Virus record (IMG/VR): IMGVR_UViG_3300023707_000001
From: a virus
Lineage: Duplodnaviria; Heunggongvirae; Uroviricota; Caudoviricetes
Reading direction: 5' to 3' (one strand)
Length of the DNA: 22,046 bases
Part shown: one piece after another, positions 7,522-20,894 of the stretch
Layout of the letters: each line of letters opens with the position of its first letter
Position numbering within the stretch: position 1 is the first letter of the stretch
Notes under the pieces: model-generated
Databases searched by the model: none
What the model was told of the DNA's origin: nothing
The model's input: only the letters and a program-made list of their open reading frames with translations
Made by a program: the position numbers and the translations under genes

Positions 7522-7878
7522 TTATTTACATTTTTTCCAGTAGTACACGACAATTTCTTCGCCGGCGTCTACCATAATCTGGCCGCGCGCATTTTCACGG
7601 TCGTAAAGCCACGGATTTGCCTCCATGATACCTTCCTTGAATTCATTGTGTTCGCGGATGCTGTAGGTATTCTTCTGCATGTAGTATTCTACAATATCAT
7701 CCAGAGACTCTGCGTGGAAAATATTAGCTCGGTAGGTTTCCACACAGTAGATAAAATCTGCATGATTCGCCTTAATGACACCACGCATTTCTGCATGGGA
7801 TATAACTTCTCCTGCGCTCGCTACGCTCGCGCTTGCAAGAACGATTGCGCCTAAAATGCCTAAAATCTTTTTCTTCAA
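7522..7878 (-). CDS. Secreted or membrane-anchored LysM-like protein, 118 aa
   Basis: TTG start with AGGAG RBS; signal-peptide-like MKKKILGILGAIVLASASVASA; AESLDDIVEYY...MEANPWL...VDAGEEIVV matches the LysM beta-alpha-alpha-beta spacing. Confidence 0.65.
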   Translation of the reverse strand: MKKKILGILGAIVLASASVASAGEVISHAEMRGVIKANHADFIYCVETYRANIFHAESLDDIVEYYMQKNTYSIREHNEFKEGIMEANPWLYDRENARGQIMVDAGEEIVVYYWKKCK

Positions 7879-14596: not shown

Positions 14597-14626
14597 AATA
14601 TACACGGATAACCACCTCATTGTCAA
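14597..14626 (-). promoter_or_regulatory. sigma70/sigmaA-type promoter driving the left gene block
   Basis: Minus strand TTGACA (14626-14621), 18-nt spacer, TATATT (14602-14597); AT-rich upstream; about 85 nt before the ATG at 14512. Confidence 0.75.
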
Positions 14627-14746: not shown

Positions 14747-15314
14747 AAATTTGTCAAAAACTTACCTCTTTTTCTTTACGCTCTAACTCGTCTACCTCCA
14801 GCATTATCAAGGGGATAACTCGGATACTTGCCTGCGGCAACGGACTCTACATAGCATGCTACAACAAGGGGAAGGATAGAGGAACAAGGAACACGATAGA
14901 GGGGTAAAAGACACTATAATAATGGGGCGGACTAGGTACATCAATAGAATTAAAGCGATAATATAACGCTTTTTGAAAAACGGAGCTTGAATCGTACCTC
15001 ATCGAATCTCCCCTGTATGGGCCAAATTAGCCTCATATGAAGCTCCAATTTCCTTGTGGCACTTTTTAAAAATTATCCTGCTATCGTCGCGCTACGTTAA
15101 AGATAACGGGTGTAGCGGGCGTTTTGGAACTAACTTTTTACAAATGCCACTTCGAAAATCTGTATTTCAGATGTGTCTGGCGTTTTTGGTTTGCCTTCCG
15201 CAAATTTGTCCGCAAAATCCAGTTCAGAAATTTTGCTGGTGGACTGCAGTAAAAAATTTGTCCCGGAGTTTTCAAAAATCTGCACCGCGAAAAATTTGTC
15301 TTGCAAAATTTGTC
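14747..15314 (+). repeat. AAATTTGTC 9-mer x5 (14747, 15202, 15254, 15292, 15306), all same orientation
   Basis: Read directly; related AAAATCTG variants lie between them. Confidence 0.8.
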
Positions 15315-15517
15315 CAAAGTGTAAACCTGTCTTTCAAAAAGTATTATTTTCCCTATAGGGGAGAATATATCTTTTTCTTGAATTTCGTTCACTTGTATTT
15401 TTATTGTAATACTTGTGTACTCTTTCTATGGACTTGGTTTACAGATTTATATTTTATTAATTTTGCGCTTCGCGTTTTGGTTTTTGCTCCTGGGTATGTC
15501 AGGCAAAGATACGTGTG

Positions 15518-16346
15518 CTGCGCTCACAAGGTTCAAGTAACCGTTCTTAGCACACTTGTTGTATTGCGGGCTCGCTTACGCTCGCCCGCCTGAAGCCCTA
15601 AATTATATGGCTCTTTATGTGTATATTGGTATATATATATCGAACAGCACTCCTATATATGGGGAGTGTGTAGTATATATATGTATATCCTGTTAGAGGT
15701 GTGTGTGAATGATATAATTAATATATGCATAAAGAACGATACAATTTGCGCGCCGGAGGTCGCGCGCGGGTAGTAGCGGGCGGAGTATGTGAATACTCTT
15801 TCTCCCCTTGCGGTATAAAGAGGGGAATATATATGGGGATATATATTTGTATATACACGAGAAGGGAGAAATGGGATAATTCTGTATCCAGTAGATAGGG
15901 AATTTACTTGGGACAGAATGATGTAACGCCCTTTTGTAGTGTTTAACGGGGCTCGCTTCGCTCGCCCCTTGATAAGGACATGACTTAATATCTTTTATTT
16001 TATTTAAGATATTGTCATTGTCTTATCTTTTTTGATTTAATATACTTTGAACTACTTTTACTGTTCCTGTAAAAGTTTGTATCTTAAATCTTTTTTCTTT
16101 CTTGTTTTCTTTTTTGTCTTATTTTATATACGCTCGCTACGCTCGCTTTTTTAAACAAGCTCTATTTATTTCTTTTTTTTAGCTTGTTATTATGCTCGCT
16201 CGCTTCGCTCGCTCGCTTGTATATATAAATAAGCTCTTTATGTTCTTTATCTTAACCTTTATGTTTGTCTTATCTTTGTTTTGCTGATAAGACTGCGCTC
16301 ATAAGGTTTTGCTAACCGAATACAGTCTATCTGCGCTCATAAGGTT
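15518..16346 (+). repeat. 16-bp direct repeat CTGCGCTCAYAAGGTT x3 (15518-15533, 16293-16308, 16331-16346)
   Basis: Two identical copies 38 bp apart and one with a single mismatch. Confidence 0.9.
15566..16216 (-). repeat. Four GCGAGC-GNA/GNNA-GCGAGC ssDNA hairpins (15566-15589, 15948-15968, 16132-16146, 16194-16216)
   Basis: Plus strand shows GCTCGC direct repeats; the minus strand can fold each with tandem G.A pairs and loops GTAA, GAA, GTA, GAA. Confidence 0.8.
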
Positions 16347-16349
16347 AAG

Positions 16350-16628
16350 CTAAATCCCTGGAGCCAATTTAGCGGGCGGTGCCTTAATCCCTCCCGAGGG
16401 GTAGGTATGGGGACGGCCATGGATAAGTCCTGGGCGGAAATCCTTCGGGCACTTATCAGCCTTTTTACCCATGAGATAAGTAAGTGGTCTTTCTTCTTGT
16501 TTATGGGTGGGGAAGGGGCTGGTATTTTTACAGGCGTTTGTGACATAAGCTATGTTTCTTGAATATGTCATATTTCTGGAAGCGTTTGTTTTGTATAGCT
16601 TGCTTAAATATGTCACAATAGTTACCAT
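16350..16628 (-). CDS. Possible hypothetical protein, 92 aa (doubtful)
   Basis: AAGGAGTGAG upstream but spacing is long; sequence is not protein-family-like. Confidence 0.35.
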   Translation of the reverse strand: MVTIVTYLSKLYKTNASRNMTYSRNIAYVTNACKNTSPFPTHKQEERPLTYLMGKKADKCPKDFRPGLIHGRPHTYPSGGIKAPPAKLAPGI

Positions 16629-16667
16629 GGTGCTTATCTCACTCCTTTCGTAAGCATGAATTTCGGA

Positions 16668-16805
16668 TTAGGATTTACGGGCGCGCGCTTTTTGCTGTTC
16701 GCCTTTTAGTCTTCTGATTTCGCGCTCGTCCTTTTCAACTTCTATTTCGATAAACTGGTTCACTTCAGAACCTAACTCGAATAAGGCAAACAATAAAGCA
16801 AATAT
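16668..16805 (-). CDS. Possible 45-aa peptide with non-canonical ATA start (hydrophobic N-terminus, charged tail)
   Basis: AAGGAGG (16820-16814) lies 8 nt before an in-frame ATA; the track's 16901 start crosses a terminator. Confidence 0.45.
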   Translation of the reverse strand: MFALLFALFELGSEVNQFIEIEVEKDEREIRRLKGEQQKARARKS

Positions 16806-16830
16806 AACGGTATCCTCCTTTGAGTAACTT

Positions 16831-16868
16831 ATAAAAACAATCCGCCCGCCAAAAAAATAGCGGACGGA
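16831..16868 (-). terminator. Intrinsic terminator closing the right gene block
   Basis: Minus strand UCCGUCCGCU/GGCGGGCGGA 10-bp stem (two G.U) followed by UUGUUUUUAU, just after the 16883 stop. Confidence 0.8.
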
Positions 16869-16882
16869 CGTTTCTTTACTTA

Positions 16883-17617
16883 TCAGGCACAAGCAGTCCA
16901 ATCAGACTTGGAACTGCCTTTGGAGCCGAAGAGCAGACCGCCAATGTCGGAGCCCAGACCCTTTACTTCATTCCAGGCATCCTGAACATCCTTGTTGCGG
17001 GAAAGCTCACGGGCGGCGGCACGGCCATTGCGGATAGTCGTTGCAAGCGTTGCGGCGCCAACAGAAACTGCGGCGGTGGCCACAACACGGCCCGTGGTCA
17101 TACCAGCATTTACGACTGCACCAGCCGTCGGTGCAAGTGCGCCATTCAGGGCATAGTCAGCAACATCCGTTGCAAACGTGGTGACGGCTTTTGCTACCGC
17201 CTGCGTACGGTCAGACCAGAGCTTGATGTTCGCTTTGCGCTGGATAAGCTGTAAATCCTCTGCGGAAACACCCGAGAGGATAACCGTCTTACCGCCATCG
17301 CTGGTTTCATAGCTGTCTTCATAGCCGAGGCTGTCGAGCAAATCCAGCAGGTTGTTCGCTTCCTGACGGGATTCAAACTTCTTGCTGAACTTATCCTGCA
17401 GAACCTCTCCCGTTTCATTGTCAATCGTCGTCACATTCTCTTTACTCATCTTTTCTTCCTCCTGTACGTCTTTTGTAATCTCTGCGTCCTCGATTTTTTC
17501 CTGTGGCGGTTCTTCTTTCAGGTCTGGACCAAGCATTGCTTCCAGAGTACCGCCCAGGAAATCGAGAACAGGGTCATTTGCCCCCTGGGCAGTTGTTTTG
17601 TCTTTTTCGGTTGCCAT
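16883..17617 (-). CDS. 244-aa protein, acidic N-terminal half and Ala/Gly/Thr/Val-rich C-terminal helices, ends -ACA
   Basis: RBS GAGGAGGG; strongly biased codon use. Confidence 0.9.
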   Translation of the reverse strand: MATEKDKTTAQGANDPVLDFLGGTLEAMLGPDLKEEPPQEKIEDAEITKDVQEEEKMSKENVTTIDNETGEVLQDKFSKKFESRQEANNLLDLLDSLGYEDSYETSDGGKTVILSGVSAEDLQLIQRKANIKLWSDRTQAVAKAVTTFATDVADYALNGALAPTAGAVVNAGMTTGRVVATAAVSVGAATLATTIRNGRAAARELSRNKDVQDAWNEVKGLGSDIGGLLFGSKGSSKSDWTACA

Positions 17618-19162: not shown

Positions 19163-19193
19163 AAAAAACAAGACAATCGTCTGCGGAGCAGAC
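19163..19193 (+). promoter_or_regulatory. Hairpin element A: AAAAAACAAGACAATC-GTCTGC-GGA-GCAGAC
   Basis: One of three intergenic copies with conserved flank and covarying 6-bp stem; function inferred. Confidence 0.7.
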
Positions 19194-19684: not shown

Positions 19685-19717
19685 AAAATAAACAAGACAA
19701 TATCGCCCGAAGGGCGA
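19685..19717 (+). promoter_or_regulatory. Hairpin element B: AAAATAAACAAGACAATA-TCGCCC-GAA-GGGCGA
   Basis: Same flank and register as A and C. Confidence 0.75.
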
Positions 19718-20861: not shown

Positions 20862-20894
20862 AAAATAAACAAGACAATATCGCGCGAAGCGCGA
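20862..20894 (+). promoter_or_regulatory. Hairpin element C: AAAATAAACAAGACAATA-TCGCGC-GAA-GCGCGA
   Basis: Same flank and register as A and B; contains GCGAAGC. Confidence 0.75.

Follow-up and report, generated by a model that had tools for sequence, protein, structure and literature searches.

The minus strand of a long intergenic spacer in a jumbo phage genome carries a family of small hairpins built on tandem G·A mismatches. The spacer lies within a 22,046-nt stretch of IMG/VR record IMGVR_UViG_3300023707_000001 (hereafter the window), which corresponds to positions 157106-179151 (reverse strand) of one 235,547-bp viral contig with 44.5% GC and a CheckV completeness of 96%. The source phage and its relatives form a clade of gut/rumen jumbo phages of roughly 170-285 kb. 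Our comparison of related sequences indicates that the four hairpins in the window, H1 to H4, are members of a strand-asymmetric, sequence-specific hairpin family and not direct-repeat binding sites. We tentatively read them as orientation-specific boundary hairpins of operons or gene cassettes that would act in the sense transcript, similar to the promoter-early stem-loop (PeSL) elements of T4-type phages. The element is best classed as a new form of the known intergenic stem-loop elements, built on a known mini-hairpin motif.

Four one-sided hairpins in a gene-free spacer

Read on the minus strand, H1 to H4 share the core GCGAGC-GNA(N)-GCGAGC and differ in their outer stems. H1 (15566..15589), GCGG-GCGAGC-GTAA-GCGAGC-CCGC, has a 4-bp outer stem, H2 (15948..15968) reads GGG-GCGAGC-GAA-GCGAGC-CCC, H3 (16132..16146), GCGAGC-GTA-GCGAGC, is the bare core, and H4 (16194..16216), GCGAGCGAGC-GAA-GCGAGCGAGC, is a double-tandem form. 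A first-pass annotation of the sequence had proposed these four G·A-tandem hairpins, and all were recovered at these positions. The pattern GCGAGC-G-N(1-2)-A-GCGAGC occurred five times in the window, always on the minus strand, versus 0.00 expected from 100 dinucleotide-preserving shuffles, and the exact pattern was found nowhere else in the 235.5-kb genome. A looser pattern added one copy on the other strand, 1.5 kb past the window's end (G000:155549; hereafter the outlier). The fifth window match (7816-7830) arises by coincidence from coding sequence and shows that scans of this kind need care: it lies inside ORF 7878..7522 (open reading frame, ORF), where it encodes the end of a signal peptide (..LASASVASA, with GCG AGC as Ala-Ser), and the G002 orthologue of this ORF reads ..MSASVASAQ from the same 13-mer. 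We left it out of the hairpin family. Besides the family, a genome-wide generic scan for Y-GA-R tandem hairpins returned chance-level background only. The mini-hairpin motif GCGNAGC/GCGNNAGC forms the core of all four window copies (GCGAAGC twice, GCGTAGC and GCGTAAGC), in line with the annotation's comparison with stable GCGAAGC-type DNA hairpins. Two plain hairpins that it had placed on the same strand are likewise present, namely TTGCC-GCA-GGCAA (14828..14840), a single copy without family support, and the 3-bp mini-hairpin CGC-GAA-GCG (15466..15474).

H1 to H4 sit within a stretch of ~2.2 kb without genes and form one border of a ~7-kb small-gene block; the spacer is flanked by this block of small early-type genes on one side and by a host-promoter operon on the other. 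Read on the minus strand, the spacer begins at a canonical intrinsic terminator (16840..16869, minus strand) behind the gene at 16883-17617, which sets its right limit. Its left limit is a strong sigma-A-type promoter, TTGACA-18-TATATT (14597..14626, minus strand), which starts the next operon and has a homologous site in the related locus L118. Directly after the terminator lie two small minus-strand ORFs with strong ribosome-binding sites (about 16630-16815 and 16350-16628), the first of which resembles a small membrane protein; both are conserved in the related IMG/VR genomes L001 and L002. The two ORFs suggest that transcription passes this terminator; therefore, some minus-strand transcription probably enters the region towards H4-H1. 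No further terminator-like site was found in the spacer beyond the terminator at 16840-16869.

Conservation and covariation among relatives

Relatives were fetched through a neighbouring 244-aa protein, which yielded L001, L002, and nine public-assembly loci with protein identity down to 42%; the hairpin family was present in every one of them. In the alignment of the window with L001 and L002, the hairpins appeared as invariant islands within diverged non-coding DNA. H1 is identical in both genomes amid diverging flanks, whereas the H2 orthologue, GGGGCGAAC-GAA-GTGAGCCCC, carries a compensatory G-C to A-T change and the L001 orthologue of H3 adds a 5-bp TATAT/ATATA outer stem. The (GCGA)n type represented by H4, a helix containing two or three G·A tandems in succession, was kept in every relative, with the triple form in L132. 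A generic scan of the 11 related loci returned ~50 copies on the sense strand, and the opposite strand gave chance-level background save for two copies with the exact core, found in L129 and L132, which are distant relatives. The annotation had spoken of a one-strand code; a strong sense-strand bias is indeed present, but the conserved outlier and these two copies show that it is not absolute.

We aligned 42 copies for covariation analysis, using a search pattern that permitted mismatched combinations. No unpaired core cell was found among them. Pair 7-22 was GC in 40 copies and CG in 2; pair 8-21 was CG in 38, UA in 3, and UG in 1; pair 11-18 was GC in 34 and AU in 8 with zero mismatches; and the closing pair 12-17 was CG in 42/42. 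Outer pairs were of many types yet remained paired, as at one position with CG in 14, GC in 11, AU in 3, and UA in 2 copies. The covariation score reached 0.344 versus 0.134 in shuffles (0/500 as high) and stayed at or below 0.18 when partner columns were slid. The G·A/A·G tandem, the closing C-G pair, and the G-N-A of the loop were invariant across all 42 copies, and the tandem stood in a Y-GA-R context in every copy. The annotation had named the loss of pairing in homologous regions as the outcome that would speak against it; instead, compensatory changes flank an invariant G·A tandem, which supports one-strand hairpins that inverted-repeat logic overlooks. A count of wobbles in the outer stems (G·T versus A·C) gave too few cases to serve as strand evidence.

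In the window the loop is always GNA or GNNA, as had been claimed. That rule did not extend to the relatives, where GTAT, GTAC, GTAG, ATAA, and AAA also occur. Loop positions 1-3 are constantly G-N-A, and a fourth base may be missing or be any of A, T, C, or G. The mini-hairpin motif was found in 37/42 aligned copies, the exceptions being the loops GTAT (twice), GTAC, GTAG, and ATAA on a GC stem, and copies carrying the A-T variant pair read ACGNAGT. A kink-turn or K-loop arrangement, which would place tandem sheared G·A pairs beside a 3-nt bulge, was not observed: in 42/42 copies the G·A tandem forms a symmetric 2x2 loop between Watson-Crick pairs. The primary sequence is conserved to an extreme degree, beyond the demands of a stem, and this points to a special fold or to a factor that recognises the sequence.

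The arms of the hairpins are direct repeats and their primary sequence is unusually conserved, features that would fit double-stranded sites (GCTCGC twice, 9-10 bp apart) bound by a dimeric protein with no hairpin involved. This explanation is extremely improbable, and we consider it excluded by the covariation, in which the arms diverge while the pairing stays. Variants lose the repeat but keep the pairing (GCGAAC/GTGAGC, GTGAGC/GCGAAC, and CCGAAC/GTGAGG), and the outer flanks are complementary rather than repeated.

Folding of the two strands

The purine strand must be the active one because the opposite strand presents T·C/C·T mismatches and T-N-C loops. The minus strand came out ahead in nearest-neighbour folding by ~0.5-1 kcal/mol as DNA and by 2-4 kcal/mol as RNA, a small margin. 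For these computed values, the annotation's statement that the complementary strand cannot fold likewise was too strong. H1 and H2 are clearly stable; as RNA they reached -18.0 and -13.4 kcal/mol (z -3.9 and -2.8), and each beat its opposite strand. For the outlier and the two antisense copies, the G·A hairpin did not stand out in local folding. The models used omit the special stability of sheared G·A pairs and GNA loops. Inverted-repeat finders and nearest-neighbour folding under-call such G·A-core hairpins, and similar signals have probably been missed in many phage genomes. Ordinary palindromes fold into hairpins on either strand and in either transcript, and fixed G·A mismatches together with a G-N-A loop would offer a simple way to make a directional signal.

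Gene context and a proposed role at cassette boundaries

In the window and the 11 related loci, the strand that folds is the sense strand of the neighbouring genes. The hairpins occur in two settings, either as a series in the long gene-free spacer after the small-gene block or as single copies just behind genes. Copies stand directly behind ORFs in L122, L131, L129, and L001: in L122 a 470-aa gene uses the loop TAA as its stop codon, in L131 one copy is found 16 nt past a stop and 30 nt ahead of the next start, and in L001 a copy follows 96 nt behind a Bro-N stop. In L118 and L001, H1 is followed by the Bro-N gene and then by a second hairpin with a compensated outer stem (GCCG/CGGC versus GCGG/CCGC). 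The window holds H1 alone, and its homology with L118 resumes after the second hairpin. Since the Bro-N gene and the second hairpin are present in L118 and L001 and absent from the window, the gene travels with its own 3' hairpin. A decayed Bro gene at 14.5-15.5 kb of the window was ruled out, as tblastn gave no match. In L129, an IS21-type transposase pair (rve/Mu-transposase C and IstB; L129:10156-12326) is inserted within the hairpin-bearing region.

These positions resemble those of the PeSL cassettes of T4-type phages, intergenic stops between small genes whose repetition drives modular shuffling (Arbiol et al. 2010, PMC2839356). Both are repeated intergenic stem-loops in plastic regions whose flanking genes come and go, and, as in PeSL cassettes, the stem-loop here stands at the borders of variable genes, with the Bro-N cassette between two copies and further copies behind ORFs. 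PeSL stems, however, are ordinary G/C-rich palindromes fused to sigma-70 promoters, whereas the present hairpins have a one-sided purine-purine core, no promoter at a fixed distance, and a stop role that is putative. In the window and in L001, H1 is preceded at 3-15 nt by a TATAAT box, and one L131 copy has such a box immediately ahead of it; most copies lack it, and no -35 partner was found.

We therefore tentatively favour boundary hairpins acting as RNA. The purine-purine core would let the hairpin fold in the sense transcript and only poorly in the antisense one, and the folded hairpin could block read-through, 3' exonucleases, or both. A sequence-specific factor or a special fold may read the invariant G·A mismatches and the G-N-A loop, and the shared hairpin sequence would provide junctions for the gain and loss of cassettes, as with the PeSL elements. 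The observations themselves comprise the existence of the hairpins, their conservation, covariation, and strand bias, the copies behind ORFs, and the cassette indel; RNA as the active form, a function in stopping or protection, and a factor that recognises the hairpins are what we infer. Given the cassette indel and the copies behind genes, a role linked to transcription units or cassettes fits at least as well as a role in single-stranded DNA (ssDNA). The exceptional copies on the other strand stand beside canonical terminators in L129 and L132 and, at G000:155549, ahead of a T-run and a sigma-A promoter, and from these positions they would face transcripts coming from the other side. If the hairpins act as RNA, they would represent a one-way stop or protection element without a U-tract.

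Several observations weigh against this reading. No T/U-run follows H1 to H4 or their orthologues, so they do not resemble intrinsic terminators; the outlier is the sole copy with a T-run behind it. Between the terminator and the promoter of the next operon, the best sigma-A-type match scored at most 9/12. Logan contigs from two 'metatranscriptomic' faecal runs match the window, with run X1 spanning the whole stretch, silent parts included (contigs of at most 35 kb, which may hold DNA), and run X2 the left block only; these contigs carry neither strand nor end information and are no proof of transcription. As RNA, H3 and H4 are marginal (-3.7 and -7.7 kcal/mol) and no better than shuffles. The core matches exactly a DNA mini-hairpin that melts ~37 degrees lower when made as RNA, d(GCGAAGC) and d(GCGAAAGC) melting at 76.5 C with three pairs only and r(GCGAAAGC) at 39 C (PMC13037366), and five tetraloops among the relatives violate the RNA GNRA rule while keeping G-N-A. 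Three further unrelated contigs of viral origin have G·A-core hairpins and perfect GNA arrays on the template strand upstream of genes, in an N4-like geometry. Finally, the genome-unique iteron-like repeats around the hairpins look like DNA-binding sites, which keeps an origin-like reading alive.

The gene that travels with its own hairpin also brings integron attC sites to mind, as one-strand imperfect hairpins 3' of mobile cassettes; on this account, the spacer would be an array of empty cassettes. In attC sites, fixed unpaired bases are combined with variable stems. The same logic is visible here, where the stems change but the structure and a few unpaired bases do not, where a gene with its own 3' hairpin was inserted beside a resident hairpin with both internally paired, and where gene content between the hairpins differs among relatives. 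Nevertheless, we consider attC-like recombination sites quite unlikely. Neither a tyrosine recombinase nor a Y1/HUH transposase was found in the 96%-complete genome: PF00589 gave no match while its control matched in all 14 genomes, and the Y1 (RAYT) transposase family PF01797 gave none while its control matched in 6 genomes. No integrase or R/L box sequence accompanies the hairpins, and the one clear cassette indel is explained equally well by homologous recombination between repeats, as in PeSL cassettes. REP/RAYT elements were ruled out in the same way, with no PF01797 match and no GTAG tag.

Occurrence in unrelated viruses

The exact core was found in at least 115 IMG/VR contigs, where many matches are chance or coding. 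Among the matches listed, outer stems were paired over at least 3 bp in 12 unrelated cases versus ~2 expected, and several AT-rich contigs contained multi-copy arrays of the core. In the unrelated viral contig L034 (35% GC), 6/8 loci coincide with the 3' end of a gene on their own strand; both strands carry such loci, and a convergent gene pair is among them. Three tandem copies in this contig contain a G·T wobble that is tolerable only on the G·A strand. An orientation test on 148 IMG/VR matches was too noisy, as high-GC contigs show open frames on both strands. Across 40 whole contigs (IMG/VR loci L004-L082), the core lay nearer the contig end than expected by chance (KS p = 0.0013), with 16 copies within 600 nt versus 8.5 expected. 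This bias may reflect repeat-rich regions, assembly or sequencing trouble at hairpins, or real ends.

The other border of the small-gene block

The outlier belongs to a GC-rich element of 330 nt (G000:C1:155530-155881; L124:5530-5881), ~1.2-1.6 kb past the window's right end. The element is almost invariant among three genomes, whereas the flanking proteins are ~74% identical. It contains GCCC-GAA-GGGC and two GAAGACAAG motifs and ends in the outlier G·A hairpin, followed by a T-run and a TTGACT-17-TATACT promoter. In its minimum-energy fold, two distant GCGAGCGAGC-like strands pair into a long-range helix of the GC plus G·A type with three purine-purine tandems. Together with H1 to H4, the outlier makes the G·A strands point outwards from the small-gene block at both sides, an arrangement that fits either stops for transcripts leaving the block or hairpins on the lagging-strand templates of departing forks.

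The predicted long-range helix raises the idea that the spacer gives rise to at least one structured non-coding RNA in which the G·A hairpins serve as modules for protein binding, the tandem G·A helix being a tertiary or protein-recognition motif. The patchy, island-like conservation over ~2 kb and the other conserved stems would agree with this. We regard it as unlikely: Rfam gave no match for the region (at the gathering threshold, then at E up to 5) or for the 330-nt element, spacer sigma-A-type sites are again no better than 9/12, and the relatives' copies behind ORFs lie outside any larger conserved structure.

A second hairpin type is found on the template strand of the small-gene block. 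It consists of AACAAGACAAY, a covarying 6-7-bp stem, and a C-G(G/A)A-G loop, and it has six copies in the genome: three in the window on the plus strand (19179-19193, 19703-19717, and 20880-20894) and three at G000:C1:155858, 156440, and 195567. Five of these lie in the block and the sixth elsewhere; the 330-nt element, whose terminal G·A hairpin is on the same strand as this type, lies ~300 nt beyond the last block copy. G001 and G002 have 7 copies each in the same layout. Read on the sense strand, these elements appear as a hairpin with a T-rich tail and are terminator-like.

About 5 kb from the 330-nt element, a gene at G000:C1:147735-151004 (L133:236-3505) encodes a 1089-aa protein with a DRDGD motif. 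Its ESM features resemble those of PF05183/YonO-type single-chain RNA polymerases of Bacillota (score 0.92, 185-189 shared features), and searches with the PF05183 HMM and against PDB, NCBIfam, and PHROGs all gave no match. From its sequence features, we treat it as a candidate YonO-like polymerase, a lead only. The neighbouring gene encodes a 622-aa protein with a ComEA-like helix-hairpin-helix stretch. A search for T7/N4-like RNA polymerase (PF00940) was also without a match, a weak result as the control was silent in every genome too.

Searches around the locus returned little else. Family searches gave no match for the majority of window ORFs, Pfam gave none for the conserved neighbour proteins, including a 1336-aa protein of the relatives, and an ESM look-up of a 328-aa neighbour returned sub-threshold RNase H hints at most. 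The region had no match in a phage DNA collection and contained no tRNA in a tRNA search. A metagenome scan with neighbour-protein alignment and a search of the left-flank protein against IMG/VR found no relatives, and a literature text search for the exact 15-16-mers of the hairpin cores found no match.

The inverted motif sets on either side of the block invite comparison with the 'injection stop' (iss) region of phage T5, in which a repeat- and palindrome-rich untranslated stretch near the pre-early genes arrests DNA entry. The T5 region (bioRxiv 10.1101/866236) is likewise an untranslated stretch of 1-2 kb with repeats and palindromes by tiny early genes, and its motif sets (IRC/IRD) are inverted around a variable coding stretch; the ~2-kb repeat-filled, conserved spacer here also adjoins tiny genes, and 3/8 long contigs of the phage clade end within 7 kb of the locus. 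However, a genome-entry boundary is very unlikely in our view. The locus is internal in three near-complete contigs for which no terminal repeats are reported, it lies outside a terminal repeat, unlike the T5 region, and shares no sequence similarity with it, and neither a DnaA-box array nor T5 A1/A2-like genes were found.

A possible role in single-stranded DNA

Alternatively, the hairpins may be ssDNA signals: the G·A strand would form a stable mini-hairpin on an opened or supercoiled duplex, the T·C strand would stay unstructured, and the site would mark an origin, a priming site, or a promoter or landing site of a phage polymerase. We consider this possible, if somewhat doubtful. The central 7-8 bases of the hairpins, with a C-G closing pair, G first and A third in the loop, match those of the DNA mini-hairpins d(GCGNAGC)/d(GCGNNAGC) described by Hirao and co-workers (PMC13037366), whose Tm is ~76 C as DNA versus 39 C as RNA. 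In contrast to the published forms, the present hairpins extend the motif by one, two, or three G·A/A·G tandems, each in a CGAG context, and by variable Watson-Crick stems, and they constitute a conserved multi-copy phage family that is known from sequence, while the reported melting data are for the short form. The fixed G-N-A and the tolerated extra base of the relatives' loops (GTAT, GTAC, and GTAG) suit a DNA triloop better than GNRA and thus favour DNA.

The Y-GA-R context favours sheared tandem G·A pairs in DNA, and this context is present throughout the family. By contrast, the folding energies are small: by standard DNA folding, H3 and H4 reach merely -1 to -1.6 kcal/mol, no better than shuffles, in a model that lacks special terms.

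The mini-hairpin motif is known from the G4 primase site, RSF1010 ssiA, and the N4 early promoters, and a DNA-acting family would add to this short list of natural roles. The complementary-strand origin of G4 and the ssiA/ssiB sites of RSF1010 are, like the present elements, strand-specific hairpins with the mini-hairpin motif, and the RSF1010 signals adjoin iterons and an AT-rich stretch, on opposite strands, reminiscent of the locus described here. Those signals, however, belong to ssDNA phages and strand-displacement plasmids with a known primase, whereas no primase is linked to the hairpins and no homology exists. More generally, the annotation had proposed priming, nicking, or entry arrest as their job, and this found no support; no primase, nickase, or HUH enzyme and no replication gene could be linked. 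In coliphage N4, the virion-RNAP promoters P1-P3 rely on a hairpin that is active on one DNA strand, the opposite-strand hairpin being melted by SSB (PMC4496689). The small GC-rich hairpin with a G-R-A triloop (GCGGAGC type) is shared, but in N4 it occupies the template strand, ahead of the genes whose transcription it drives, and a fixed +1 C stands 11 nt away from the middle of the loop, whereas the hairpins studied here are on the sense strand. Approximately half of the latter carry a central loop T (GTA, GTAA), and the base 11 nt 5' of the centre, the predicted +1, differs among H1 to H4. An N4-type start would also make RNA antisense to the neighbouring genes.

The surroundings of the hairpins add origin-like features, with genome-unique repeats and AT-rich tracts. 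Two iteron-like 16-mers, AACCTTATGAGCGCAG on the minus strand (16293-16318 and 16331-16356), lie just upstream of H4, and a third, GAACCTTGTGAGCGCAG (15518..15543, minus strand), lies 23 nt downstream of H1. They take the form AACCTT-N-TGAGCGCAG, and no copy beyond these three was found elsewhere in the 235-kb genome. The relatives have 2-6 copies of a related ..GAGCGC(A) motif (GACCTACCGAGCGC, CCTTGCGAGCGCACC, or (T/C)GAGCGCA) before the H4-type hairpin. Five of the genome's six GACAAATTT copies also fall in this area on the minus strand (14747-14755, 15202-15210, 15254-15262, 15292-15300, and 15306-15314), three of them exactly 52 bp apart, and these repeats were not conserved among the relatives examined. 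The main GC-skew minimum and the gene-strand switch are ~18 kb from the locus, which speaks against an origin.

Further support for a DNA signal comes from the phage's own hairpin repertoire. The six AACAAGACAAY elements are perfect C-GRA-G hairpins with a fixed tail, located on the template strand of the adjacent block in a phage that probably has its own YonO-like polymerase. The cluster and the outlier are inverted about the block, which would make their G·A strands the lagging-strand template of forks leaving it, and the 15-mer with paired outer stems recurs in unrelated viral contigs, three of which carry it on template strands. On the other hand, the copies behind ORFs and the two orientations at the L034 convergent pair track transcription and not fork direction.

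A broader view would make the G·A-core mini-hairpin a device used generally by large DNA viruses, extruding or persisting on a single DNA strand and read by the viral replication or transcription machinery, an idea that we hold to be rather doubtful. The 15-base core would have arisen or spread in unrelated phages and giant viruses owing to its physical properties. In the source phage, the element would set both outer borders of the early block and be carried along with mobile cassettes, and the YonO-like polymerase, which seemingly uses the perfect GNA hairpins on the other strand, could be its reader. If so, G·A-core hairpins might help to define the signals of the poorly understood YonO-type polymerases.

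Other features of the spacer

The annotation had also drawn H3 and H4 into a cloverleaf closed by TATATAC/GTATATA, and this closure is not kept in L001 or L002. Between H4 and H3, an ordinary inverted repeat, AACAAGCT/AGCTTGTT (16154..16188, minus strand), is kept in both genomes with a different loop. At 15748-15767, the GC-only near-palindrome GCGCGCCGGAGGTCGCGCGC and the ~25 bases that follow are shared with L001 and L002 amid diverged spacer sequence.

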